From IMG/VR virus record IMGVR_UViG_3300042486_001111: a stretch of 64,000 nucleotides of DNA; one strand, 5' to 3'. Positions 3,085 through 22,803 of the stretch are shown piece after piece. Made by a program: the position numbers and the translations under genes. The DNA comes from a virus (taxonomy: Duplodnaviria > Heunggongvirae > Uroviricota > Caudoviricetes). Below the pieces are notes generated by a model. That model made no database searches. It saw only the letters and a program-made list of their open reading frames with translations, and was not told the origin of the DNA. How positions within the stretch are numbered: position 1 is the first letter of the stretch; each line of letters starts with the position of its first letter.

Positions 3085-3463
3085 CTTTCTTATTTTTTAT
3101 TTTCATATATTCCCCATCACAAAGAGTTCTATACCAACCTATGTCAGTTCTTAAAGTTCCTGGTTCGCCAGTTACTTCACAAATTTCATAACTCTTATTT
3201 TCTGCCTCTGTTATTCTTTTGAATATTTCATCACTACCACCATTAATATAGAACCTTAGTCCTCCGAACTTTTCTTTAACTTGAGTTACTTGTTTATCCC
3301 AACCCAATTTAATTAAATCTTCTATAAGTTCTTTGATGAGTTTTAACCACCCATTGTCCACTTCAAAATAACCACAATCTTTAATTGGTGGTTTTTCAGT
3401 TCTCCAACCGTTTTCTAATCCACCTATAGAAATTAGAAAATCATTCATTTCTTCTTCTGTCAT
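3074..3463 (-). CDS. Conserved phage hypothetical protein (QVKEKFGGLRFY family)
   Basis: QVKEKFGGLRFY plus C-terminal ICEVTG/TLC motif common in large phages. Confidence 0.75.
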   Translation of the reverse strand: MTEEEMNDFLISIGGLENGWRTEKPPIKDCGYFEVDNGWLKLIKELIEDLIKLGWDKQVTQVKEKFGGLRFYINGGSDEIFKRITEAENKSYEICEVTGEPGTLRTDIGWYRTLCDGEYMKIKNKKDGI

Positions 3464-4462: not shown

Positions 4463-5035
4463 TTATTTTAAAAATTTAAGTATTTTATCTTTAATCCCTG
4501 ATTGTTTAATACCTTCATGTCCTCTTGGCGTTAAAACAAAATTATCCAATCCCCAATCTTTCCAATCTTCACCATTCTTACCCATATCTAGATCATCAAC
4601 CGCAACCCAATGTGTAATCTCAGGATGATCGTGTAGATATTGTTTTATCTCAATAACTCTAGTCATTTCTAAATCCCATCTCGGTGACCATATCCAAACC
4701 ATATCATTGTACCAATTACACTGTCCTAAGTTTGGTGTTAAATCTATTGGCTTTTTAATAATACCCTGAGATTCGTAATACTCACCCATCTCTTCTAAGT
4801 TTGCCCATCGTTTCCAATCGGATGAGGTGACAATCTCAGTACCAGTTTCTTCTATAATTTTATTAAGAATCTTAATTGCTTTTTGATTGAAGTTATCAAA
4901 TCGGTACTCCAAAGGGAAATCCCCCATAGACATAGATAACTTACGACCATCCCATTTTTCTTGTTTCTTACGTCTCCCACCCCATTCTGAAGATAAACAA
5001 ATTACCCCATCATGATCTAAAAATATAACTTTCAT
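4463..5035 (-). CDS. HAD-superfamily phosphatase (Swiss-Army-knife RNA-repair HAD type)
   Basis: N-terminal KVIFLDHDGVI (DxD), IVTSSDWK, VAVDDLD. Confidence 0.8.
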   Translation of the reverse strand: MKVIFLDHDGVICLSSEWGGRRKKQEKWDGRKLSMSMGDFPLEYRFDNFNQKAIKILNKIIEETGTEIVTSSDWKRWANLEEMGEYYESQGIIKKPIDLTPNLGQCNWYNDMVWIWSPRWDLEMTRVIEIKQYLHDHPEITHWVAVDDLDMGKNGEDWKDWGLDNFVLTPRGHEGIKQSGIKDKILKFLK

Positions 5036-5340
5036 ATATAAATTTTATTATCTAAACAATATTTTACAATATAGTTTTTTAAATTGATTATTGTTTCTTT
5101 AAAATCCACTCTTTTGAATTCATTCTCCCATCTTTCACCTTCATTATCCTCTTGTAATAAATCGGAACAACTTTTACTAATCTCAGAAATAAGTTGTTTA
5201 AGTGCTACAGTCTGATCAACTACTTGATTATTCTCAATAACCAAATCTTCCAATTCTCTACAATACTCAACTAACTCCATAACTTCAGGTTCATCCATTA
5301 GTGTGGTGTTATTTTTGAATATTTGGTTGATTGACTTCAT
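5032..5340 (-). CDS. Hypothetical phage protein
   Basis: 102-aa ORF with 4-bp overlaps. Confidence 0.7.
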   Translation of the reverse strand: MKSINQIFKNNTTLMDEPEVMELVEYCRELEDLVIENNQVVDQTVALKQLISEISKSCSDLLQEDNEGERWENEFKRVDFKETIINLKNYIVKYCLDNKIYI

Positions 5341-6029
5341 ACGAATTCCATTTCATTTGTTTCAGTATCCCAAATCACATTAACAGGTTTGTTTCGATAT
5401 TCGTATCTATCATTTAACACTGACGCATTAATATAATGCGTATTACCATCAAACACATACCCATAACCCTCATGTATGTGCCCAAATACGTGAATTTTTG
5501 GTTTTATTTCTTCAACACGTTTCATAAGTTCTTCACACCCAACGTTCTCATTTCCATAACGGACATAATCTAACTTCCCAAAAGGTGGACCGTGAGTGAT
5601 AAGAATATCCGTATCCACAGGAATCATATCCCATTTCTCTTTTAACTTTTCACCTCTAGGTAAATTAAATGCCCAATTAAAAAACTCTGGTTGCCAAGGT
5701 GTACCATAAATTACTAACTGTTGATCTTCATCGTCCCAAAGATCCATTCTTTCGTCCTGAAGATATTCAACGTTCTTATATCCTGTTAATAAACCTATTA
5801 GTTTTTCATAATCGTTCTCAAACCCAAAATCGTGATTCCCCGCAATAAAAACTTTAAAGTCGTAATTGTCTATACTATCAAACCACTTTAAAAAGTTTTC
5901 AATCTCAGTAATATACCCTCGACTAGATATGTCACCCGCACAAATAAGAATATCTCCACCAGTTAAAAAACTGTTTAGTTTTTCGTGTTTGGTGTGTGTA
6001 TCACTTATAAATGTTATTTTCTTTTTCAT
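5337..6029 (-). CDS. Calcineurin-like metallophosphoesterase (MPPED/239FB type)
   Basis: ISDTH, AGD, IAGNHD, LITHGPP and FGHIHE motifs. Confidence 0.9.
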   Translation of the reverse strand: MKKKITFISDTHTKHEKLNSFLTGGDILICAGDISSRGYITEIENFLKWFDSIDNYDFKVFIAGNHDFGFENDYEKLIGLLTGYKNVEYLQDERMDLWDDEDQQLVIYGTPWQPEFFNWAFNLPRGEKLKEKWDMIPVDTDILITHGPPFGKLDYVRYGNENVGCEELMKRVEEIKPKIHVFGHIHEGYGYVFDGNTHYINASVLNDRYEYRNKPVNVIWDTETNEMEFV

Positions 6030-6031
6030 AA

Positions 6032-6196
6032 TTAATCAAAAAAACCACCAAAATATAATAATGTTAGATGTATTGTTACACCTATCATAGTAACAAAGAC
6101 ACTGTGATTCCCTTCTTTTGGTTTACCGTGTAAATAAGAAGAAATCATTAAGTTAAGTCCAATAAGACTTAGTAAGATAATTTGTGGAACCCCCAT
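6032..6196 (-). CDS. Small 2-TM membrane protein
   Basis: Start likely MGVPQ at 6196 because the promoter at 6215-6246 overlaps the longer predicted start; two hydrophobic helices. Confidence 0.6.
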   Translation of the reverse strand: MGVPQIILLSLIGLNLMISSYLHGKPKEGNHSVFVTMIGVTIHLTLLYFGGFFD

Positions 6197-6214
6197 AATA
6201 TATAATTTAGTAAA

Positions 6215-6246
6215 CAAATATAGTTATTATTTCCCATAAAAACAAA
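6215..6246 (-). promoter_or_regulatory. Bacteroidota-type promoter (TTTG-N20-TATATTTG)
   Basis: Consensus match; drives the gene array downstream of tRNA operon 1. Confidence 0.75.
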
Positions 6247-6265
6247 TGTTTTAACATTTTTATAG

Positions 6266-6340
6266 TACCAAAGGTGAGATTCGAACTCACAAACCTTTGT
6301 TTCTAAGACAAAGAGGTATACCTATTCCCGTCACTTTGGT
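6266..6340 (-). tRNA. tRNA-Leu(UAG), short variable loop
   Basis: Acceptor ACCAAAG/CTTTGGT, anticodon arm TTTGT-CTTAGAA-ACAAA, T-arm GTGAG-TTCGAAT-CTCAC. Confidence 0.85.
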
Positions 6341-6346
6341 ATTTTG

Positions 6347-6419
6347 AGCAGGTGGAGAGAATCGAACTCTCGTCCTCTGATTGGAAGTCAGACATAATAA
6401 GCCACTATACGACACCTGC
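6347..6419 (-). tRNA. tRNA-Gly(UCC)
   Basis: GCAGGTG/CACCTGC, TCTGA-CTTCCAA-TCAGA, U73. Confidence 0.95.
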
Positions 6420-6428
6420 ATAATTAGT

Positions 6429-6554
6429 TTACCTAATTTTTAATTTTTTAAAGATATTGATTATCTTTTTGAGATTGAGATTACTTCTCCTACTCAAAAG
6501 AAAGTTCACATTTTCTTTTGATGATTTAAACGTTCCTTTTACTACTACTTTCAT
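6429..6554 (-). CDS. Small basic ORF (41 aa) inside tRNA operon 1
   Basis: Manual translation MKVVVKGTFKSSKENVNFLLSRRSNLNLKKIINIFKKLKIR. Confidence 0.4.
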   Translation of the reverse strand: MKVVVKGTFKSSKENVNFLLSRRSNLNLKKIINIFKKLKIR

Positions 6555-6569
6555 ATTATTTATTTTTTG

Positions 6570-6643
6570 TGGATACATCTCGGCTTCGAACCGAGGACTC
6601 CTGAGTGCAAATCAGGTATGATAGCCAGCTTCATCAATGACCC
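6570..6643 (-). tRNA. tRNA-Ala(UGC), one-nt bulge in the acceptor stem
   Basis: CCTGA-TTTGCAC-TCAGG; G3:U70 retained; 3' strand ATGTATCC has one extra T. Confidence 0.8.
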
Positions 6644-6648
6644 ATTAG

Positions 6649-6723
6649 TTGCGGGGGAGGGACTCGAACCCACGTAGTTCGGCTTATGAGACCGAGCTGG
6701 AACCACCTCCAGTCTACCCCGCA
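6649..6723 (-). tRNA. tRNA-Met(CAU), initiator-like acceptor
   Basis: TGCGGGG/CCCCGCA, TCGGT-CTCATAA-GCCGA. Confidence 0.85.
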
Positions 6724-6755
6724 ATTTTTAATTACACCGAATTCGGTATATTTAG

Positions 6756-6830
6756 TTCTCCCGACAGGATTCGAACCTGTGACTCCCTCATTAAAAGTGA
6801 GGTGCTCTAAACCAACTGAGCTACGAGAGA
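6756..6830 (-). tRNA. tRNA-Lys(UUU)
   Basis: TCTCTCG/CGGGAGA, CCTCA-CTTTTAA-TGAGG. Confidence 0.95.
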
Positions 6831-6836
6831 TTGTTG

Positions 6837-6908
6837 AGGTTCCGCTCAGATTCGAACTGAGGACACATGATTACAAATCAAGCGTTTTACCAACTAAACT
6901 ACAGAACC
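6837..6908 (-). tRNA. tRNA-Thr(UGU)
   Basis: GGTTCTG/CGGAACC, CTTGA-TTTGTAA-TCATG (one mismatch). Confidence 0.9.
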
Positions 6909-6955
6909 TTATTATCACCCGTATGGTAACCGCTTGATTAACGGGCGAAAAATAG

Positions 6956-7028
6956 TAGTCTCTGTAGGGTTCGAACCTACGACATCTTGCATGTAAAACA
7001 AGCACTCTACCAACTGAGTTAAGAGACT
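6956..7028 (-). tRNA. tRNA-Val(UAC)
   Basis: AGTCTCT/AGAGACT, CTTGT-TTTACAT-GCAAG. Confidence 0.95.
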
Positions 7029-7032
7029 GTTG

Positions 7033-7116
7033 CGGAAGAGTGAGGTATCGATCCCCATACCCGAAGGTACCACTAGTTTTCAAGACTAGGTCCAGCGCCA
7101 GCTGAATTACTCTTCC
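7033..7116 (-). tRNA. tRNA-Ser(UGA)
   Basis: GGAAGAG/CTCTTCC, CTAGT-CTTGAAA-ACTAG, long variable arm, G73. Confidence 0.9.
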
Positions 7117-7132
7117 AGTTTTTTTCAATACG

Positions 7133-7141
7133 TCAAAGAAC
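7133..7141 (-). promoter_or_regulatory. boxA-like antitermination element GTTCTTTGA
   Basis: Same 9-mer also at 8891, 13619 and 21370, each 5' of RNA genes. Confidence 0.6.
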
Positions 7142-7142
7142 T

Positions 7143-7176
7143 AAAAACAAAAAACCCTAAGTTTTCACTTAGGGTT
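7143..7176 (-). terminator. Attenuator intrinsic terminator of tRNA operon 1
   Basis: AACCCTAAG-TGAAAA-CTTAGGGTT followed by TTTTGTTTTT, located upstream of the first tRNA. Confidence 0.85.
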
Positions 7177-7203
7177 CCCATTTATAGTATTAAAATTTTA
7201 CGA

Positions 7204-7302
7204 TTAACTAATGTGACATACCCTAAGTATTGGATGAAGCGAATCCGCCCCTTCCATTTTCGTCTTAACGACCTCTAGTCTGTATGTGAATGTAGTTAAC
7301 AT
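7204..7302 (-). CDS. Leader peptide 1 (32 aa, MLTTFTYRLEVVKTKMEGADSLHPILRVCHIS)
   Basis: Manual translation; lies between promoter and terminator; contains the antiterminator strand CTTAGGGT (7220-7227). Confidence 0.8.
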   Translation of the reverse strand: MLTTFTYRLEVVKTKMEGADSLHPILRVCHIS

Positions 7303-7334
7303 TGAATTTTTATTTGTTTTTAATTAAATATACA

Positions 7335-7366
7335 CAAATATACAAAAGTTTAAACAAAAAGTCAAA
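7335..7366 (-). promoter_or_regulatory. Bacteroidota-type promoter of tRNA operon 1 (TTTG-N20-TATATTTG)
   Basis: Consensus match; 39-nt block 7315-7353 is identical to 9158-9196. Confidence 0.85.
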
Positions 7367-7385
7367 TATTTTTAAAAAAATATTT

Positions 7386-7760
7386 TTATTTCATATTATC
7401 CATAGTAAGTTTATCTGCAATATAAACGTGTTTTAATTCCATTTTGAATTTATTTTCGAACCACTCCTTAAAAAAATAAAGGAATGATTTGTTAGATTCA
7501 AATTCTGGTGATTCTTTAATAAAGTTTTTATAAACTTCATATCTTATTTCAAGAAAACCCCCAAACGCAAAATATGTCATAATAACATTAGGTAGTGTTA
7601 ATTCAATTGAATTAGGTTTTGTCCAAATTCTTTTTCTAATCGATTTACCGTTAAAAACATGTATCACATTTTTTTCCTTTTTAAACCTAACTTCTTTAAA
7701 TAAAGAATTAAATGTATCCTCACCAATTTTTTTTTCTGTAATTACCATATCTTTTCCCAT
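7386..7760 (-). CDS. Hypothetical protein between the two tRNA operons
   Basis: 124-aa ORF with its own promoter at 7780-7810. Confidence 0.7.
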   Translation of the reverse strand: MGKDMVITEKKIGEDTFNSLFKEVRFKKEKNVIHVFNGKSIRKRIWTKPNSIELTLPNVIMTYFAFGGFLEIRYEVYKNFIKESPEFESNKSFLYFFKEWFENKFKMELKHVYIADKLTMDNMK

Positions 7761-7779
7761 AGTTTTTGATTTATTTAGA

Positions 7780-7810
7780 CAAAGATATGAATAATTTTCA
7801 TTCTACCAAA
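7780..7810 (-). promoter_or_regulatory. Bacteroidota-type promoter (TTTG-N19-TATCTTTG)
   Basis: Consensus match, near-duplicate of 315-345. Confidence 0.8.
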
Positions 7811-7833
7811 TTTTTTAACGTTATTTTTATTTG

Positions 7834-7907
7834 AGGTCAGAGTGAGATTCGAACTCACGAAAAGTAGTTTTGCAGACTACCCCTTTAAACCACTCAGGCA
7901 TCTGACC
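7834..7907 (-). tRNA. tRNA-Cys(GCA)
   Basis: GGTCAGA/TCTGACC, GTAGT-CTGCAAA-ACTAC, U73. Confidence 0.95.
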
Positions 7908-7976
7908 GTTAGTTCACTAAACTATATTTTGCTTAATAAATTACATTTGTTTATTGTTGCAAAAATAAGTTTATCG

Positions 7977-8049
7977 TACACTCTGAGAGATTCGAACTCC
8001 CATCTTATGATCCGTAGTCATAGGTTCTGATCCATTGAACTAAGAGTGT
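7977..8049 (-). tRNA. tRNA-Arg(ACG)
   Basis: ACACTCT/AGAGTGT, TATGA-CTACGGA-TCATA. Confidence 0.95.
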
Positions 8050-8051
8050 AT

Positions 8052-8126
8052 TGGTAGGGATGGGTGGAGTCGAACCACCGAGACTACTGTATAAGAGTAG
8101 CATGTTCACCGTTACATCACATCCCC
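8052..8126 (-). tRNA. tRNA-Ile(UAU), encoded CCA
   Basis: GGGGATG/CATCCCT-A-CCA, CTACT-CTTATAC-AGTAG. Confidence 0.9.
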
Positions 8127-8134
8127 ATATTTTG

Positions 8135-8221
8135 CGGAAAGAATAGGATTCGAACCTACGGTACCCTTTCAAGTACAACACCTTAGCAGGGTGCCACAAT
8201 AAACCGCTCTGTCATCTTTCC
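8135..8221 (-). tRNA. tRNA-Ser(GCU)
   Basis: GGAAAGA/TCTTTCC, GCACC-CTGCTAA-GGTGT, long variable arm. Confidence 0.95.
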
Positions 8222-8225
8222 ATTA

Positions 8226-8299
8226 GGTGTACGATGGGACTCGAACCCACTATTGACGGAATCACAACCCGACGCCTCGACCACTTTGGCTTCATACAC
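8226..8299 (-). tRNA. tRNA-His(GUG)
   Basis: GTGTATG/CGTACAC, C73, anticodon loop TTGTGAT; no genomic G-1. Confidence 0.85.
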
Positions 8300-8301
8300 A
8301 G

Positions 8302-8372
8302 TTGTCTCCCAAGGATTCGAACCTCGATTAAGTGGACCAAAACCACTTGTCCTGCCATTAGACGAGGAGACA
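8302..8372 (-). tRNA. tRNA-Gln(UUG)
   Basis: TGTCTCC/GGAGACA, AGTGG-TTTTGGT-CCACT. Confidence 0.9.
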
Positions 8373-8379
8373 TTATTTG

Positions 8380-8468
8380 TCTAAGTGATGGGACTCGAAC
8401 CCACATAGAACTGTTACATTCATTCCTGATCCCAAATCAGGTCGGCGACCAATTGCCTACACACCTAG
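8380..8468 (-). tRNA. tRNA-Pro(UGG) with about 20-nt variable region
   Basis: CTAGGTG/CACTTAG, CCTGA-TTTGGGA-TCAGG, insert AATGAATGTAACAGTTCTAT before the T-arm. Confidence 0.85.
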
Positions 8469-8474
8469 TTATTG

Positions 8475-8547
8475 TGGAACAGGTAGGAATCGAACCTACA
8501 TTGTCGGATTTTCAGTCCGATGCCTTGACCAACTTGGCAACTATTCC
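8475..8547 (-). tRNA. tRNA-Phe(GAA)
   Basis: GGAATAG/CTGTTCC, TCGGA-CTGAAAA-TCCGA. Confidence 0.95.
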
Positions 8548-8552
8548 ATTTG

Positions 8553-8623
8553 CACACCCCCAAAGATTCGAACTCTGACCAAACGGGTTGGAGCCGTTTA
8601 TGCTACCGTTACACTAGAGATGT
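8553..8623 (-). tRNA. tRNA-Trp(CCA)
   Basis: ACATCTC/GGGGTGT, AACGG-CTCCAAC-CCGTT, G73. Confidence 0.9.
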
Positions 8624-8628
8624 GTATA

Positions 8629-8701
8629 AATGTTCAGGAAGACTTTTTTTACATTTCCAAATTAGTAGTTTTTTATTTGCTGAAATCTTCCTTTTAACAT
8701 T
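8629..8701 (-). ncRNA. Small structured element with CAGCAA motif between tRNA-Tyr and tRNA-Trp
   Basis: AATGTT...AACATT and GGAAGATTT...AAAGTCTTCC stems enclosing CAGCAA; resembles the RNAs next to the TROVE gene. Confidence 0.45.
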
Positions 8702-8703
8702 TG

Positions 8704-8786
8704 TGAGGGTAGTAGGATTCGAACCTACTCAGTCATAGACAACAGATTTACAGTCTGCCCCAACTCTCCAACTTTGGCGTACCCCC
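8704..8786 (-). tRNA. tRNA-Tyr(GUA)
   Basis: GGGGGTA/TACCCTC, GCAGA-CTGTAAA-TCTGT, long variable arm. Confidence 0.95.
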
Positions 8787-8798
8787 ATTAATTATTTG

Positions 8799-8872
8799 CG
8801 ATTCAGGCAGGACTCGAACCTGCGACAACTTGATTAACAGTCAAGGGCTCTAACCAACTGAGCTACTGAATC
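8799..8872 (-). tRNA. tRNA-Asn(GUU)
   Basis: GATTCAG/CTGAATC, CTTGA-CTGTTAA-TCAAG, G73. Confidence 0.95.
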
Positions 8873-8909
8873 ATTTAATTTTACATTATATCAAAGAACT
8901 TATGTTCTG

Positions 8910-8985
8910 TCGGTATGGTAGGGATCGAACCTACGAATCTTCTCGATATCAGCGAGATGCCTTAAACCTACTTGGCCACATACCG
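8910..8985 (-). tRNA. tRNA-Ile(GAU)
   Basis: CGGTATG/CATACCG, TCTCG-CTGATAT-CGAGA. Confidence 0.9.
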
Positions 8986-8994
8986 TAATAAATT

Positions 8995-9025
8995 AAAAAA
9001 CCCCAACTCATTTCTGAATTGGGGT
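8995..9025 (-). terminator. Attenuator intrinsic terminator of tRNA operon 2
   Basis: ACCCCAATTCA-GAAA-TGAGTTGGGGT plus T-tract, immediately upstream of the first tRNA. Confidence 0.85.
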
Positions 9026-9051
9026 ACTTTAATCCTTTATTTATTTATCTA

Positions 9052-9150
9052 TCAAAATTTAAATAACGACATAACATACCCCATCCTTCCGTAAATATAA
9101 AACGGTTGACACCACTGTATCGGATTACTATGTATGTTATTCATTATCAT
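9052..9150 (-). CDS. Leader peptide 2 (32 aa, MIMNNIHSNPIQWCQPFYIYGRMGYVMSLFKF)
   Basis: Manual translation; lies between promoter and terminator; contains the antiterminator strand TGGGGTA (9077-9083). Confidence 0.85.
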   Translation of the reverse strand: MIMNNIHSNPIQWCQPFYIYGRMGYVMSLFKF

Positions 9151-9177
9151 TTTTTACTGTTTTTAATTAAATATACA

Positions 9178-9209
9178 CAAATATACAAAAGTTTAATTAA
9201 AAAGTCAAA
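9178..9209 (-). promoter_or_regulatory. Bacteroidota-type promoter of tRNA operon 2 (TTTG-N20-TATATTTG)
   Basis: Consensus match; duplicate of the operon 1 promoter block. Confidence 0.85.
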
Positions 9210-9239
9210 TATATTTTTAAAATTATTTTTTTTAAAATA

Positions 9240-9262
9240 AAAAACCCCTAAAAATAGGGGCT
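9240..9262 (-). terminator. Intrinsic terminator after the lipoprotein gene
   Basis: GCCCCTA-TTTT-TAGGGGT plus T-run on the minus strand. Confidence 0.7.
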
Positions 9263-9286
9263 TAACAAAAATTTATTTTTTGTTTT

Positions 9287-9469
9287 TTACTTCACCTCCA
9301 CCGATGTGCTATCTACATTTTCGGTTCCTGCGGTATCATCAGAAGCAGTACCTGCATCTGTTGCCACACCATTTGTAGTTGCATCATTAGTTGTTGAATC
9401 TGATTGTGTGTTTCCACCACAAGACACTAAAAGTGTCATAACTGTCAATACCAAAAAAACTTTTTTCAT
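9287..9469 (-). CDS. Small lipoprotein (signal peptidase II type, low-complexity T/D/S tail)
   Basis: MKK plus hydrophobic stretch plus LLVS-C lipobox. Confidence 0.75.
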   Translation of the reverse strand: MKKVFLVLTVMTLLVSCGGNTQSDSTTNDATTNGVATDAGTASDDTAGTENVDSTSVEVK

Positions 9470-9598
9470 TTTTAAAAAAATTATTTAATTATTAGTTAGG
9501 CTTTTCACCCATCGGAGATTATAAGTGTCTCTAACTATACAAAACAAAATTATAAAAAAAATATGTGAAAGTAAAACTTTTTAACATTTGATAACAAT

Positions 9599-9904
9599 TT
9601 ATTTATTGTCACCATATTTTTCCTTCAAATACTTTACCCACTCTTCTTGCTTCCTACCATTAATAAAAAACCAACCCAAATTAATCTCAAACCATTTATT
9701 AAAACTGTATAATATATTTCTTATAATGAAAAAAATTGTAATAAAAAAAACTATTATTATCGGTGCAAAAGGTACCCAACCCATAAAATTTTGAAATTTA
9801 GATATGTCTTTTCTAACCACACCAGCACACATTAAAAAATATTGAACGAATAGTGTGAACGTAATCACAAAAAATACTGTAAATTTACCTATAATCTCAA
9901 ACAT
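9599..9904 (-). CDS. Membrane protein
   Basis: Two hydrophobic segments. Confidence 0.65.
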   Translation of the reverse strand: MFEIIGKFTVFFVITFTLFVQYFLMCAGVVRKDISKFQNFMGWVPFAPIIIVFFITIFFIIRNILYSFNKWFEINLGWFFINGRKQEEWVKYLKEKYGDNK

Positions 9905-9907
9905 AAC

Positions 9908-10312
9908 TTAATCTTTTATTATTCTTTTATGTGTCTTAGTGGATACCTCTTTAATTTTTTTCTGCGATGATGGTGATTCGCCTAAACCATTTGCCATCCA
10001 AGATTTAATCTCCATTTCCTGTAAAAAATCAGATACATTAGGTATAAACTTTTTACCATAATCCTCTAATATATGGTATTCACATATATCTTTAACTGAT
10101 ACAGTTTTACCATCAGAGTTTGTTATATATTCCCCAAATATAGGTATCATTACTTCAAATATGAAAAACATATTATGGGTTAACGCCCTATGTCTATTAT
10201 CACTAAAGTATTTTTTAGAGACATCCATTTTATTATGAAGTGGTAAGTAATCTTCTACATTACCACCCCACAGTTTTATGGAAGATTTGGAATGTACTAA
10301 AGGATTAGCCAT
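9908..10312 (-). CDS. DUF6915-like protein
   Basis: MANPLVHSKSS..WGG..EDY..H..MD..K....D.RHRAL.H pattern. Confidence 0.7.
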   Translation of the reverse strand: MANPLVHSKSSIKLWGGNVEDYLPLHNKMDVSKKYFSDNRHRALTHNMFFIFEVMIPIFGEYITNSDGKTVSVKDICEYHILEDYGKKFIPNVSDFLQEMEIKSWMANGLGESPSSQKKIKEVSTKTHKRIIKD

Positions 10313-10727
10313 TAGTTTCTTCTATATTAGAATCATTAGTTTCATCATCTAAACCATCACCAACCGTTACATCCCAAATTTTAGATTCCTCTACATCCTC
10401 TTCATAGATTTCACCCCAATACTCCTCACTAACAATTGTACTAACAGTAATCTCTTGTTCAGAATTCATATTATATTCTATTTTACCCGATGTACCAGCA
10501 TTATTCCAATTATACTCTACACCTGATTCATCTAATATCTGAAATAGAAAACTCCAATGATCATCTAAATTTAAAACACCTTCTCTTTGCGGGTATATCC
10601 CTACATATGAAAATGAACCGAAGGAATCTCCTCCTCCCTCAAATTCAATTTCAACTGTGTCATTTTGTGGATCAAAATCAGGGTACCCACTTTTAATCAT
10701 CTCAATAAAACTTTTTTTAATTCCCAT
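10305..10727 (-). CDS. Acidic protein, DUF6878-like
   Basis: IEFEGGGDSFG motif; commonly paired with the DUF6915-type gene. Confidence 0.5.
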   Translation of the reverse strand: MGIKKSFIEMIKSGYPDFDPQNDTVEIEFEGGGDSFGSFSYVGIYPQREGVLNLDDHWSFLFQILDESGVEYNWNNAGTSGKIEYNMNSEQEITVSTIVSEEYWGEIYEEDVEESKIWDVTVGDGLDDETNDSNIEETNG

Positions 10728-10953
10728 TTTTTTATTTTCTAAATTTTTCGGAAAACTCAGTATCCTCTAATTCTGGTGGGCAAACATCAATAATGTGTTT
10801 TCTCCACCAACTCTTTAATTTTATTTTAATTATTTTTAACATAAATCTCTACAGTATAAGTTTGCCAAAATTAATCTAGCAAATTTTAATTCTTTAGACC
10901 TATTTAAACGCAAACCATATGCGCGAGCAATAACATTTAAATGAGGGTATGCC

Positions 10954-11136
10954 TCACTTATCGTCATTTGTCCTATCGTTTTTTGATTCATAATCATTTT
11001 TATTTACACATACATAAACTTCTTGAAACCACCCAAAAACACATTCACCTGAAAATTTAACTGGTATAAATTCATCCCAATTGAAATTCGGTATTACGTC
11101 ATAATATGTTTCATTTGGAAAAATTACTCTAACCAT
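10954..11136 (-). CDS. Small hypothetical protein
   Basis: 60-aa ORF in the array. Confidence 0.55.
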   Translation of the reverse strand: MVRVIFPNETYYDVIPNFNWDEFIPVKFSGECVFGWFQEVYVCVNKNDYESKNDRTNDDK

Positions 11137-11445
11137 TTAGTTGGGGTATTTATTAACATAGTCTAATGCAGATAATGATAAATATTTAATTAACCTTTCG
11201 TTATCTAATTTTTTAACTTTTCCTAAATCTGACATCATCTCTAAATAAGACTCAACAATCTTATCAAACTTTCTTTTGTAATAATCTTCAGGTGGCATAT
11301 AATTATTTTTTTTACAAATATAGTAAATATTTTTTAATTAGTCACAAAATATGCAATAATTCCGATAAAAATAAACCAACCTATTACGATAATAGTCCAT
11401 TTGTAATCTTCTTTAATATTTCTCATATTATTATTTTTAAAAATT

Positions 11446-12081
11446 TTAGTCCCACCAACCCTTAAGTCCTGAACCATCAAACCATTTATAATATTGATCA
11501 GTTTCTTTTTTCTCTTCCTCAGTTAAAGTCTTCTTAAACTTTTTATAATCTTTATAATCCTGACCTTTTAAAATTTTGAATAGTTCTTTCCATTCTTTTT
11601 CCTCAATTTTACGGGACAGTTCAAAAACTTTACTATTATGATTCTCTTCTTCTTCAGTATTCTTTTCTACTAATCTAGAATATCCTGGTTTATCAGGTAC
11701 TTCCTCAAACTCCCAATCATGAAGGTGTAACGGTCCTAACTCAGATTCAGCCATTTCAATGTAGTTACTCTCATTATAATTTTTAATGATTTCTACTGCA
11801 CGTTTCATTGCGGCAACTTTTTTCAATCTTGATATGTCAATCTCCAACCCTTTTTTTTCTAAGTTTTCTGACATATGAGTTAAACCAACCTCCAGAAACA
11901 TTAAAGTTCCGTGATGATCCCACCAATAGTGGTTTGCCAATGGTTTCCTAAATCTCCATACGTTTTTTATGAAACGCATTATATCATACCTAAAAAAAGA
12001 ATAAAATTTATAAATCTTACTCTGATGCCACGATAATTTTTTTAAACTTTCCGCAAAAGTGTCCGCAAATTTTATTTCCAT
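11446..12081 (-). CDS. Hypothetical phage protein
   Basis: 211-aa ORF, aromatic-rich, ends GWWD. Confidence 0.75.
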   Translation of the reverse strand: MEIKFADTFAESLKKLSWHQSKIYKFYSFFRYDIMRFIKNVWRFRKPLANHYWWDHHGTLMFLEVGLTHMSENLEKKGLEIDISRLKKVAAMKRAVEIIKNYNESNYIEMAESELGPLHLHDWEFEEVPDKPGYSRLVEKNTEEEENHNSKVFELSRKIEEKEWKELFKILKGQDYKDYKKFKKTLTEEEKKETDQYYKWFDGSGLKGWWD

Positions 12082-12082
12082 A

Positions 12083-12421
12083 TTACCTAAATAGTCTTTC
12101 TAATATATTCAAATTTAATTTATCTATAAGGGATAAGTCATCACCCCAAATATTTTTTTCACACAAGTCCTCATATAATGAAAATAAGGGAGTTCTTAAA
12201 AATAAAAAATCCCACTTAGATATTCTGAACTTAGGAATGTTAGTTTTGTTGGGTAATTTAAACTCAAAAGAAAGTAATGAGTAAGCATTATGATTTTTAC
12301 TAATAGTAAAAAAATTAACACCCCAATTACTATGATAATCATTTATCTTTAATGTGATTAAATTAAAAATCAAATGAAACTTTCTAGTTTCCCAACTTAT
12401 TTTTTCTAAATGTCTTCTCAT
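12083..12421 (-). CDS. Hypothetical phage protein
   Basis: 112-aa ORF in the array. Confidence 0.6.
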   Translation of the reverse strand: MRRHLEKISWETRKFHLIFNLITLKINDYHSNWGVNFFTISKNHNAYSLLSFEFKLPNKTNIPKFRISKWDFLFLRTPLFSLYEDLCEKNIWGDDLSLIDKLNLNILERLFR

Positions 12422-12623
12422 TTTAATACTTATATGGTTTTAGAAAACTTATCACATACCCAAAAAAATAAATATATTTTTTAAAGCCATATTTTTGACT
12501 AAATGTGAATCTTTTTGTGAAGGATATTCCGTAACCGAATAACCTAAACCAAAAAATATCTTTACTTTTATGACAATAAAAAAACTTACCCATATTACAA
12601 TTATAACGTTTTTAAACTGAAAG

Positions 12624-13118
12624 TCAAATCATTAGATAAGGTTTCCATTCTTCATTGATGTTTCCGTTCATTCTTTCTATGAATTCTATATATGTTGGTG
12701 CATATGGTTTCCTAATCATTTCCATATTAGACTCTTCAGGTGTTTTATCACCTTTATTAAGATTACACTCACCACAACAAGTTACTAAATTTTTCCAACT
12801 ATTCCCACCACCTCTTGATTTTGGTAGTACGTGATCTAATGTCAGATTCTTATTTGTACCACAATAGACACACTTATGACCATCCCTCCTAAATATGTTA
12901 TACCTACTTAATGGTACTTTTTTATAAGGTAAGAAAATGTATCTCATTAATCTAATAATTGTTGGTCTCTTAAAAGTTTTTACGGTAGATACAATAGGGT
13001 TATTATCGTCAGAAAAAATAATTTCTGCCTTACCCTTGTAGACTAATTTAAACCCCCTTTTCAGTGTTGTAACATTCAATGGGGTGTAGTCATTATTTAG
13101 AACTAGTACCTTTTCCAT
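12624..13118 (-). CDS. HNH endonuclease (McrA-like)
   Basis: RRDGHKCVYCG..LTLDHVLPKSRGG.NSWKNLVTCC..CN..K. Confidence 0.9.
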   Translation of the reverse strand: MEKVLVLNNDYTPLNVTTLKRGFKLVYKGKAEIIFSDDNNPIVSTVKTFKRPTIIRLMRYIFLPYKKVPLSRYNIFRRDGHKCVYCGTNKNLTLDHVLPKSRGGGNSWKNLVTCCGECNLNKGDKTPEESNMEMIRKPYAPTYIEFIERMNGNINEEWKPYLMI

Positions 13119-13140
13119 ATCATTTATAAATATTTTATTA

Positions 13141-13170
13141 AAATAAAAACCCCCAAATAAATGGGGGTCT
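13141..13170 (-). terminator. Intrinsic terminator closing the tmRNA transcript
   Basis: ACCCCCA...TGGGGGT plus TTTTATTT. Confidence 0.8.
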
Positions 13171-13178
13171 TATAAAAT

Positions 13179-13240
13179 TGGGGCCGATAGGATCTCTATC
13201 TGGCGAATCCACCACTTTGTTTTTAAGGAACAAAGAAACC
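13179..13240 (-). ncRNA. 62-nt cloverleaf-like small RNA ending in CCA, directly 3' of tmRNA
   Basis: GGTT/GGCC closing stem, hairpins CTTTGTT/AACAAAG, GGTG/CGCC and GATAG/CTATC, then CCA. Confidence 0.5.
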
Positions 13241-13245
13241 TTTAG

Positions 13246-13613
13246 TGGAGGTGGAGGGTTTCGAACCCTCGTCCTTCCCATGTCCAAATGGATTTCTACG
13301 TGTGTAGTCAGTTTTTCTAAACTAACAAAATAGACAGTTCCCTTATTACACTGTTCGGTTTACTGACAACTAATCCTCAGTCTTCTTATTTATAAAGGTT
13401 CAAAAAGATAATAACCTGTATGTATTACTCGATTAGGCGAATACAACCTCTTCTTTTGCAATTGTACCTACAGTACCATTCAAAAGAATGTTTTCGTTTA
13501 GGGCTAAGCCCATGTTTGTATCGTTGCCGACTATTGTTTTTTTTAGATTAACGCTCTACCACGACACGCTTACGCCTACTCTTCTTACGCGAAGTCAAAT
13601 CCAATACACCCCC
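13246..13613 (-). ncRNA. ssrA: tmRNA
   Basis: 5' GGGGGTGTATTGGATTTGAC, 3' T-arm GAGGG-TTCGAAA-CCCTC and CACCTCC-A with G3:U70; resume context ATAGTC-GGC; tag ORF 13528-13433. Confidence 0.95.
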
Positions 13614-13786
13614 ATTTTTCAAAGAACTTTTCTTTAATGATTTATCGTAACCTTTGTTATAAGAAATAATATCATAACAATCAATTTCATGATCATCGTA
13701 CATCTTACTCTTCTCAAATAACTGTTTCGTTAAACTCATATATAAGTATAGTGATATTTATTTATAAAATCAAATATTTATTACAT

Positions 13787-14134
13787 ATGTCATTAAAATT
13801 ATTAGATATTTTAAACGAAGAAAAAGAAAGATGTGAATATCAAGTTAGAGATATCGGTGGTTCCGTATACTACAAAAAATGTGGTAAGGGTAAAAAATGG
13901 TTATTTACTGATGAAATAGATTTCTTAAAAAATTCAAAAAAATCTAACACTGAAGAGTGGGAAAAACCAAAAGATAAAAAATCTAAAATAAGACAACTAA
14001 ATGTTCCACAAAAAAAAGGAGACAAGTTAGAAGATTTAAAAATCTATTATACTAACTTATCTCCAGATAATTATAAAATCGAAGTGGAAGGAGATGCTAT
14101 AGTTATTAAACCATCTCCTCTAAAATACCAATAA
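13787..14134 (+). CDS. Hypothetical protein (starts MSLKLLDILNEE)
   Basis: Internal ATG at 13787 preceded by ATATTTAT. Confidence 0.65.
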   Translation: MSLKLLDILNEEKERCEYQVRDIGGSVYYKKCGKGKKWLFTDEIDFLKNSKKSNTEEWEKPKDKKSKIRQLNVPQKKGDKLEDLKIYYTNLSPDNYKIEVEGDAIVIKPSPLKYQ

Positions 14135-21362: not shown

Positions 21363-21381
21363 AATATCTTCAAAGAACGTT

Positions 21382-22803
21382 TTATATAGTAACTAAACTA
21401 TATCTAATATCATTAATAGTCTCCATCAGTATTGATTCTGGTGTCATATTCTTTCCACCTAATATAGATTTAAGAATTGACGGACTGAATCCCGATACTA
21501 ACGCAGTACCATTTTTATCAAACTCAACTGGGAAATTCCCACCTTTAGCATTTAAATTCCAGTAAATGATATCAGGAATTTTATATCCCGCTTCATTATA
21601 CATTTCCTCAATCATAGATTGTGCTCCCAAACTATCTCTTCTGTTAGCCTGATTGAATTGCATATCTGACAAAATTAATATCTTAGTCGGCATAAATTCC
21701 TCCGTAATATTATTATTTTTTGCCTGTGTTAAAATTAGGTTAAACACTTTTTCTAAATTAGTGCTCATACCCCAATCAGCGTTTCTCAACTGTGATAGTC
21801 TTTGTTTTAGACTACCTCTTAGGTATTGTAATTCAGGATCTTCAGAGAATGTAATGAACGCATCTTTAAAGTTACCTGAATTTCTTTCTGAAATATACAT
21901 ACCTAACGATATTGCAATATCCATACAAGTTAGGTTAGGATTCCCTCCCACCTCACAAGCCATAGATCCTGAAACATCTACAACTGGTAAAATTCTTTCT
22001 TCAGAACCTTCCATCCAATTAGGTAGTGACTCCCATTGTTTATCATTAACAACATCATCACCACCCATATTCATAGATTTTATGATATCATATGGGTATA
22101 CTGCACCAGCATTAACTTTCGCAGTTCCATCAACTAAGGCAGTTTTATATTCCTCATACCTTGTCGAATCGTTTCTTTTGAATGACTTCTGATACCTTGA
22201 TGATGCGAGAGAAGGAAGTTTAGAATAATCAATTGCCTCCCAATCTCTAGCACACATCTTAGTCTCCACAACGTTAGTTAGTTCCACTAACATCTTTCGA
22301 TATTGTTTCGGTGTAAACTTAAACAATTTTCTAAGTCCGTTAGCGATAATACCTTTTCTCGGCATCCATTTAGCACATAGACCGTCTCCGTTTGTTAAAG
22401 CCGTTCTAATAAGTGAATACATATCGTCCTCTAACTCTGTACCAAATAAAACTAAAACATCATCCCATCTACCAAATTCTGGTATCAAAGCAATGTTCTT
22501 TCTAACAGTTTGTGGTGAGTTGGTGGTTAGGTGTGAAATAACGTCTCTAAAGACTTTTCTTTCTCCTGACCCACCTCTAACGTCTCTAGCCCAAAATAAG
22601 ACTTTAGACGCCACCAAAGGATTTTCATTAAAGGCTTCTTCGAAAACTTTAACTACTTTATCTTTTGATTTCCCTCTCATCGATCCGATAGAGAAAAACA
22701 AATCAACACATTTATTCAATGTGGTGTTGTTTGTAACCATACCATTATCAGTTAATGTTACGTTACTTTTATTTTCTACCAAAATTGTTTGAGAGTCGCT
22801 CAT
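21382..22803 (-). CDS. TROVE-like/vWA (DUF2828-type) Ro60-related RNA-binding protein
   Basis: FWARDVRGGSGER, FGRWDD, AKWMPR, VDVSGSM MIDAS motif, ILSDMQF, YWNL; promoter at 22830-22861. Confidence 0.8.
   Translation of the reverse strand: MSDSQTILVENKSNVTLTDNGMVTNNTTLNKCVDLFFSIGSMRGKSKDKVVKVFEEAFNENPLVASKVLFWARDVRGGSGERKVFRDVISHLTTNSPQTVRKNIALIPEFGRWDDVLVLFGTELEDDMYSLIRTALTNGDGLCAKWMPRKGIIANGLRKLFKFTPKQYRKMLVELTNVVETKMCARDWEAIDYSKLPSLASSRYQKSFKRNDSTRYEEYKTALVDGTAKVNAGAVYPYDIIKSMNMGGDDVVNDKQWESLPNWMEGSEERILPVVDVSGSMACEVGGNPNLTCMDIAISLGMYISERNSGNFKDAFITFSEDPELQYLRGSLKQRLSQLRNADWGMSTNLEKVFNLILTQAKNNNITEEFMPTKILILSDMQFNQANRRDSLGAQSMIEEMYNEAGYKIPDIIYWNLNAKGGNFPVEFDKNGTALVSGFSPSILKSILGGKNMTPESILMETINDIRYSLVTI

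Follow-up and report, generated by a model that had tools for sequence, protein, structure and literature searches.

Leader-peptide attenuators are known from the trpL, hisL, pheL and leuL leaders, and the same class includes the multivalent leaders of ilvGMEDA (Leu, Val and Ile codons) and thr (Thr and Ile codons). The pheM leader of pheST senses one amino acid and controls a synthetase, and T-boxes, with their specifier loop and T-box sequence, need no translation and recognize uncharged tRNA by direct binding. To our knowledge, all described leader-peptide attenuators regulate amino acid biosynthesis or synthetase genes, and neither the pheST attenuator nor the T-box riboswitches control tRNA genes. 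Here we analysed positions 9209-8995 on the minus strand of a 64,000-nt stretch of DNA from a large uncultured phage (IMG/VR record IMGVR_UViG_3300042486_001111, Caudoviricetes; hereafter the window), where a promoter, a short leader open reading frame (ORF) and a terminator precede an operon of 12 tRNA genes. Judged from its sequence, the locus, called attenuator 2 below, is probably a ribosome-mediated attenuator that couples the speed of cognate-codon decoding to transcription of the tRNA operon.

As in the enterobacterial attenuators, a short and here putatively translated leader ORF and an intrinsic terminator stand before the regulated genes, the antiterminator shares the 5' arm of the terminator, and the position of the ribosome on the regulatory codons would pick the helix. 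The closest known systems are the ilvGMEDA and thr leaders, in which several codon types likewise make up an OR gate. Unlike those leaders, which use runs for one to three amino acids, the phage leader samples 11 tRNA species at one to three codons each. It also differs from enterobacterial leaders in that most of the sensing codons are found not in segment 1 but in the loop that connects it to segment 2, in being phage-borne with Shine-Dalgarno-less initiation, and in matching no Rfam leader family. Finally, the regulated genes are phage tRNA genes and not genes of enzymes, so that the loop would close on tRNA supply. With the pheST attenuator and the T-boxes the locus shares the principle that transcription attenuation ties the expression of decoding machinery to the state of the tRNA pool; unlike in a T-box, no specifier loop or T-box sequence was found in the phage leader by the Rfam scan. 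The locus shows every structural feature of the leader-peptide attenuator class that can be tested in silico, and tRNA genes would be a new target for this class.

Explanations for the presence of tRNA genes in phages have been debated for decades. Codon compensation is one proposed role, and others are that they stand in for degraded host tRNAs or help the phage to evade tRNA-cleaving defences; recent work on phage tRNAs centres on why they exist, with the control of their expression hardly addressed (PMC10264068, PMC11464382, PMC11555353). A search of the full-text literature found no description of codon-matched leader-peptide attenuation of tRNA genes.

Anatomy and codon match of the putative attenuator 2

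The attenuator locus is read 5' to 3' along the minus strand, all coordinates are those of the window unless another sequence is named, and the window features given below lie on the minus strand unless stated otherwise. The promoter P2 (9178..9209) is of the sigma-70 style, with TTGACT-17 nt-TATATT at 9208-9180. The same region can be read in the Bacteroidota style as TTTG-20 nt-TAtaTTTG; it fits both consensus forms. Leader ORF 2 (9052..9150) consists of 32 codons and a TGA stop, with its ATG about 22 nt downstream of the predicted transcription start. It has no Shine-Dalgarno sequence and is A-rich upstream. Its start context resembles that of the long ORFs of the window, none of which (0/57) showed a Shine-Dalgarno motif and which are A-rich at positions -12 to -5 before their starts. 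Such starts, together with the form of the promoter, are typical of Bacteroidota-type hosts, and the starts tentatively favour a Bacteroidota-like host. The exact tRNA-Ile pattern of the operon had no match among the bacterial genome contigs searched.

The putative sensing zone comprises codons 4-20 of the leader (NNIHSNPIQWCQPFYIY, 9091..9141), with 17/17 codons in the set decoded by operon 2. Segment 1 (ATAACATAC, 9132..9140) has its partner at 9079-9071. Segment 2 (9071..9083) contains both the antiterminator strand TGGGGTAT (9083-9076) and the segment 1 partner GTATGTTAT (9079-9071). An A-rich spacer separates the ORF from the terminator hairpin, and segments 3 and 4 (8995..9027) consist of GTACCCCA (9027-9020), which pairs with segment 2, and of the terminator (9025-9000), a hairpin of 11 bp with a GAAA loop and -16.7 kcal/mol, followed by a T-run to 8995. 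A 60-amino acid gene lies upstream of the unit (9469-9287) and is followed by a terminator hairpin of its own (9242..9263, a 9-bp stem and then a T-run), which shields attenuator 2 from transcription entering from upstream.

The tRNA operon 2 (7833..8985) contains 12 genes in the order Ile-GAU, Asn, Tyr, Trp, Phe, Pro-UGG, Gln-UUG, His, Ser-GCU, Ile-UAU, Arg-ACG and Cys. The first gene, Ile-GAU, begins 9 nt past the T-run. Terminator 2 sits between P2 and the tRNAs, and the gap leaves no space for a second promoter. Between 6000 and 9700, only three terminator-like sites were present: the two leader terminators (that of attenuator 2 and that of its paralogue described below) and the terminator of the upstream gene. 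Searching 5500-14000 against Rfam 15 at E <= 1 returned only tRNAs, a transfer-messenger RNA (tmRNA) and chance matches, with no leader family or T-box at 8995-9209. Within the operon, tRNA-Pro(UGG) (8379-8468) scored below the Rfam tRNA threshold (26.7 bits) because 13 nt are inserted between its anticodon stem and T-arm, as seen by comparison with the 76-nt homologue of the related locus L003; the insertion is common to the window and the related locus L036.

Codons 2-20 of leader 2 read ATA, ATG, AAT, AAC, ATA, CAT, AGT, AAT, CCG, ATA, CAG, TGG, TGT, CAA, CCG, TTT, TAT, ATT and TAC. The initial annotation had claimed that all 18 non-Met codons among them match operon-2 tRNAs and that Arg-ACG alone lacks a sensing codon, and both the ORF and the codons were found as it listed them: 18/18 are decoded by tRNAs of the array (8985-7833), and Arg-ACG is the only operon-2 tRNA without a leader codon. 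The background probability of a codon of this set is 0.38 in the window genes (long ORFs) and 0.48 in six-frame or spurious ORFs. With 18/18, leader 2 ranked first among 282 small ATG ORFs. However, since a low-complexity spurious ORF reaches 17/18 and a longer in-set run of 18 codons is present elsewhere in the window in a six-frame scan, run length by itself is weak evidence in such AT-rich DNA (approximately 30% GC).

Although run length is not exceptional, the combination of run and coverage is. The uninterrupted 17-codon run at codons 4-20 includes codons for 11 of the 12 tRNA species, and the runner-up among approximately 128,000 six-frame positions of the window covers nine. Per position, the joint probability of run and coverage comes to about 1e-7 when the six-frame null is applied and to about 1e-9 with the codon usage of the genes, so the proposed codon match holds against the codon-usage null suggested for it. 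Under the six-frame null, approximately 0.014 such occurrences are expected in the whole window, and the one observed is located exactly in the leader of its own operon. The match is also specific to the reading frame, with 17/17 codons in the ORF frame vs 12/16 and 2/16 in the other two, and it ends sharply, as only 3 of the 12 tail codons (21-32) belong to the set.

Paralogous, homologous and unrelated leaders

The window contains a second unit of the same layout, attenuator 1 (7145..7375), with a near-identical promoter; approximately 55 nt of the P2 region recur almost unchanged before operon 1 (7375-7316). Promoter P1 (7365-7337) is followed by leader ORF 1 of 32 codons (7302-7204), a zone at codons 9-22 (LEVVKTKMEGADSL, 7278-7237), the antiterminator strand ACTTAGGGT (7228-7220), a terminator (7179-7150) and the tRNA operon 1 (6265..7116) with Ser-UGA, Val, Thr, Lys, Met, Ala, Gly and Leu-UAG. 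The zone of leader 1 specifies Leu, Glu, Val, Lys, Thr, Met, Gly, Ala, Asp and Ser, and none of its codons belongs to operon 2. In the relatives L001, L003, L035, L036 and others, operon 1 encodes Ser-UGA, Asp, Val, Glu, Thr, Lys, Met, Ala, Gly and Leu-UAG, so the 14-codon zone covers 10/10 operon-1 tRNA species as present in the relatives (approximately 4e-8 per position). The window operon 1 is without Asp-GUC and Glu-UUC, which in the relatives are situated between Ser-UGA and Thr (6908-7034 in the window vs 3084-3560 in L003). For leader 1 and leader 2 alike, 0 zone codons fall into the set of the other operon. Chance or base composition was considered as a full explanation of the match and rejected, as coverage, frame specificity and operon specificity are all exceptional though run length is not.

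Two further observations concern this region. The first gene of operon 1, Ser-UGA (7116-7034), has a long variable arm and was missed by ARAGORN in the window; it scored 47.9 bits with the Rfam tRNA-Sec model (threshold 47 bits), and the homologue of the relatives was called tRNA-Ser(UGA) by ARAGORN. A 124-amino acid ORF without family match (7386-7760) lies between operon 2 and P1. It is not present in L003, in which the Cys tRNA is directly followed by the promoter, and two IMG/VR contigs break inside it.

Relatives of leader 2 were collected as 11 loci by a search for the tRNA-Ile pattern in IMG/VR and metagenome contigs, and they yielded six distinct leader-2 sequences, that of the window included. 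All replacements within the zone remain in the set (N/H, S/I, P/F, I/S, I/N/Y and Y/S/I). The sole indel inside leader ORF 2 is a two-codon (6-nt) deletion that preserves the frame, and the ORF is kept open in all six variants. The ORF length of 32 codons and the motif QWCQP are conserved, while positions 2-3 (I/K/T and M/I/T) and the tail change freely to out-of-set residues. The 18/18 count that headed the initial annotation is thus true for the window but is the lucky top of a robust zone at codons 4-20, as positions 2-3 vary out of the set. The variants of leader 1 (V to A, T to A, E to D and A to V) are all in the set as well, and one variant has a GTG start. Because residues change while set membership is kept, selection appears, from these sequences, to act on the identity of the tRNA reading each codon and not on the peptide.

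The design is not universal, as the Caulobacter phage Cr30, the crAss-like phage cr111_1 and several relatives with other arrays have no leader-attenuator before their tRNAs. A synteny search with the DUF6915 protein (134 amino acids) gave 28 loci, one of which has the same tRNA operons; the others contain different arrays without such leaders.

Two irregular arrays were seen among the relatives. In L003 (3171-3318) and L001 (470-618), approximately 150 nt between tRNA-Ser and tRNA-Asp contain tRNA-like pieces in odd order, a part resembling a T-arm and 3' acceptor and then one resembling a 5' acceptor and D-arm, with no tRNA called; possible explanations of the stretch are a tRNA that is permuted or split, or an RNA that only resembles a tRNA. 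In the metagenome contig L039 (2537-3144), the Lys gene of operon 1 is followed by further genes for Cys, Trp, Asn, Tyr and Gln, an arrangement that may represent a recombinant array or an assembly chimera.

The same design was found in two unrelated phage lineages. In the Cellulophaga phage phi4:1 (KT962245), two leaders each lie behind a copy of a repeated promoter unlike that of the window, and a terminator follows each of them. The zone of leader A, QRLHLQELEQP, covers with 11 codons 7/7 downstream tRNAs, namely Pro, Glu, Gln, His, Leu-UAG, Leu-UAA and Arg-ACG. The hypothetical coding sequence (CDS) annotated as Phi4113_075 overlaps leader B, the 17-codon zone of which specifies Ala, Lys, Ile, Gly, Asp, Thr, Val, Arg-UCU and Tyr; its coverage is 10/10 including ATA, provided that one of two CAU tRNAs is of the Ile2 type. 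Phi4:1 also has a third tRNA block (L031, KT962245, 5446-5716) with Ser-GCU, Asn, Trp and Phe. No convincing leader was recognized there: the annotated 33-amino acid CDS preceding the block has N, W, F and S codons together with many others, and no clear terminator was seen.

In the uncultured 634-kb phage LR745206.1, codons 2-21 of a 38-codon ORF are restricted to Thr, Met, Asn, Leu, Val and Ile. The 15-gene array after this leader includes Asn, Arg-UCU, Leu-UAG, Val, Ile-GAU, Thr, Leu-UAA and Ile-UAU, and all leader species are in the array except Met, the gene for which is in the next tRNA block approximately 200 nt further on; that block adds Thr-GGU, Met and Leu-CAA. Within the tail of the ORF lies CTGAGGGT, a copy of the terminator 3' arm and a perfect 8-bp complement of its 5' arm. 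Both phages share with the window the order of the promoter, the codon-matched leader ORF, the copy of the terminator 3' arm in the ORF tail, the terminator and the tRNA array, whereas the sequences of leaders, terminators and tRNA sets are unrelated and the ORFs are between 22 and 38 codons long. In the four scored units together, 59/59 zone codons were in the cognate set and 0 in the set of the sister operon. In the literature searched, no description of the phi4:1 or LR745206.1 leader units was found.

Alternative RNA structures and ribosome position

The leader-2 RNA is far more structured than shuffled sequences (-48.8 kcal/mol, z = -6.3). In the minimum free energy fold, the full-length leader forms the terminator and a long hairpin that joins the 5' and 3' ends of the ORF. 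The core of this hairpin is a 9-bp helix of 9140-9132 with 9079-9071 (segment 1:2), in which one compensatory column (C-G / U-G / U-A) was seen across the relatives. The initial annotation had left this helix out, although it carries the sole compensatory change observed. The annotation had correctly placed a pairing of TGGGGTA (9083-9077) with TACCCCA (9026-9020), and this pairing extends to 8 bp, with TGGGGTAT and GTACCCCA forming an antiterminator that uses the terminator 5' arm. As the antiterminator and the segment 1:2 helix overlap by 4 nt, they are mutually exclusive.

The antiterminator duplex has an energy of -14.6 kcal/mol vs -8.9 +/- 2.1 kcal/mol in a codon-shuffle null (P = 0.015). 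Comparable results were obtained for leader 1 (P = 0.033), for leader 2 of L003 (P = 0.001) and for phi4:1 leader A (P = 0.016), while phi4:1 leader B had no duplex beating the codon shuffles under the arm definition used; thus four of the five units were significant. The terminators differ in sequence between the units, and each ORF tail contains the matching copy. Among the leader-2 variants, the antiterminator has at least 7 bp in every case, and 93.8% of the cells are paired. When the transcript is cut at segment 3, the antiterminator state (-26.4 kcal/mol) and the state with segment 3 free (-26.5 kcal/mol) are isoenergetic, and in the full-length transcript the terminator state is favoured by 13 kcal/mol. 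Therefore, the choice between the two must be kinetic, as in trp.

To follow the effect of ribosome position, the RNA was folded without its portion up to 14 nt beyond the A-site codon, and the pairing of segment 3 on its emergence was scored. In leader 2 (zone 4-20), the probability that segment 3 is paired stays at 0.7-0.8 while the A-site is at codons 2-16, then falls to 0.62 at codon 18 and to 0.18 at codon 20. In leader 1 (zone 9-22), the antiterminator persists up to A-site codon 20 (0.95) and is lost from codon 24. The phi4:1 leader A (zone 4-14) forms it with A-site codons 2-13 and loses it from codon 15, and LR745206.1 (zone 2-21) forms it with codons 2-22 and loses it from codons 24-26. 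The end of the zone coincides with the loss of the antiterminator also in the L003 leaders and in phi4:1 leader B. In these models, the matched codons stop where a stalled ribosome can no longer favour read-through, which was unexpected and is the strongest mechanistic argument for the attenuator.

This modelling bears on two earlier proposals about the ribosome. That a ribosome stalled in the zone frees the antiterminator strand is supported, with the antiterminator predicted at A-site codons 2-18. That a ribosome at the stop codon masks TGGGGTA is not, as such a ribosome would cover approximately codons 28-33 and the strand corresponds to codons 23-25. Masking would instead take place with the A-site at approximately codons 20-30, and later the 9-bp helix 9140-9132/9079-9071 can re-sequester the strand. 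The interpretation of the locus as a leader-peptide attenuator is itself in agreement with every computational test run.

Proposed mechanism, alternatives and neighbouring genes

The anatomy of the locus, the codon-tRNA match with its conservation and recurrence, and the alternative pairings are directly supported by sequence and computation. From these we infer that the ORF is translated, that stalling leads to read-through, and that the signal sensed in nature is how abundant the tRNAs are and not whether they are charged. Transcription would start from the strong P2, and codons 4-20 would sample 11 of the 12 downstream tRNA species. Upon slow decoding of any zone codon, the ribosome would linger in the zone and hold the helix between the ORF 5' and 3' ends apart; TGGGGTAT (codons 23-26) would then be free to pair with the emerging GTACCCCA, and with this antiterminator in place no terminator would form and the tRNAs would be transcribed. 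Upon fast reading, the ribosome would have reached or passed codons 20-30 by the time the terminator is synthesized, with the antiterminator strand either covered or re-paired behind it. The 11-bp hairpin and T-run would then form and transcription would end 9 nt before the first tRNA. The overall logic would be that of a multi-input OR gate giving negative feedback on tRNA supply.

Several observations weigh against this interpretation. The truncated transcript still prefers the antiterminator when free of ribosomes (P = 0.77 for leader 2 and 0.77-0.9 in the family); in phi4:1 leader A, the corresponding probability is 0.02, so that the terminator is the default, which is the classical behaviour. 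There is no within-family covariation of antiterminator and terminator, the sequences of which barely vary. Positions 2-3 of leader 2 are often out of the set in relatives (Lys, Thr), and Arg-ACG has no sensing codon in any relative. Leader 1 keeps GAG, GAA and GAT though the window operon 1 has no Asp or Glu genes, and therefore the match is not maintained instantly. Leaderless tRNA arrays exist (cr111_1 and the relatives L007 and L009). Finally, with 1-3 codons per tRNA, where classical leaders use runs, the sensitivity to mild shortage may be low.

Some of these points would fit an attenuator that is real but reports general translation capacity, amino acid starvation or the stage of infection; the operon would open whenever leader translation slows, with the codon match only reflecting codons preferred by the phage. 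Stalling is blind to the difference between a missing and an uncharged tRNA, any global slow-down would act similarly on single codons per tRNA, and in the leader family of the window the untranslated default looks like read-through. However, a general sensor does not need operon-specific sets, and leaders 1 and 2 as well as phi4:1 leaders A and B are disjoint, each matching its own array at full or almost full coverage. In addition, the replacements seen in relatives remain in the cognate set. We thus regard a general sensor as unlikely.

The promoter, ORF and terminator could also constitute a micro-gene for a functional peptide, with the tRNAs expressed by leaky, constitutive read-through or from elsewhere and the pairing incidental. 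Short peptides can be functional, and the conserved length and QWCQP motif would be in line with this. Nevertheless, the order and identity of the residues change while set membership is kept, and three unrelated lineages follow one rule with unrelated peptides. The pairing beats codon shuffles in most units, the zone ends where the ribosome begins to block the antiterminator, and the distance between T-run and first tRNA is too short for a separate promoter, all of which makes a micro-gene highly improbable. Hardly credible is an untranslated structured RNA with an accidental ORF (an element for tRNA-precursor processing or stability, a protein- or tRNA-binding switch, or a small RNA that is released), for which the strong structure of the leader and the chance in-set runs of AT-rich DNA would speak, but against which stand the unique and frame-specific 11/12 coverage, the in-frame indel with retention of the ORF, the recurrence of the design in lineages with other sequences, and the lack of any Rfam match to a T-box or leader family at E <= 1.

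As to the purpose of the putative tRNA attenuator, we tentatively suggest an on-demand sensor of tRNA depletion, e.g. by host nucleases, as one possible role. Each tRNA block would be switched on when any matching host or phage tRNA becomes limiting, for example upon cleavage by a host anticodon nuclease or upon phage-induced decay of host tRNA, and holes in the tRNA pool would in this way be detected and repaired. Two nearby genes of RNA-repair type could be part of the same tRNA-maintenance programme, an ORF with the HAD domain of 'Swiss army knife' RNA repair proteins (4463-5035) and a calcineurin-like phosphoesterase (5337-6029). Large phages may commonly sense demand through codon-matched leader attenuators of this so far undescribed type. 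If so, phages would gauge how fast each codon is decoded and provide tRNAs as they are needed, and read-through of a defined terminator would report the limiting tRNA during infection. The attenuation paradigm would then extend from amino acid supply to tRNA supply, with a compact natural multi-input sensor of the tRNA pool. Since a cultured instance exists in Cellulophaga baltica and its phage phi4:1, the idea is testable now.

Elsewhere in the window, nearly all genes are on the minus strand, and an endolysin-type protein and an SbcC-like protein are among their products. Besides the HAD-domain ORF and the phosphoesterase, a third gene of RNA-maintenance type, at 21382-22803, encodes a DUF2828/DUF7788 protein (PHROG 'RNA-binding protein'). 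The phage-encoded tmRNA (13245-13613) has the tag AKEEVVFA, and the tmRNAs of the relatives have other tags. The 9-mer GTTCTTTGA occurs in five copies vs 0.8 expected, four on the minus strand (7133-7141, 8891-8899, 13619-13627 and 21370-21378) and one on the plus strand (3328-3336). The four minus-strand copies adjoin RNA genes, with positions after the leader-1 terminator, after the first tRNA of operon 2 and before the tmRNA among them, and the 9-mer may be a processing or antitermination signal.

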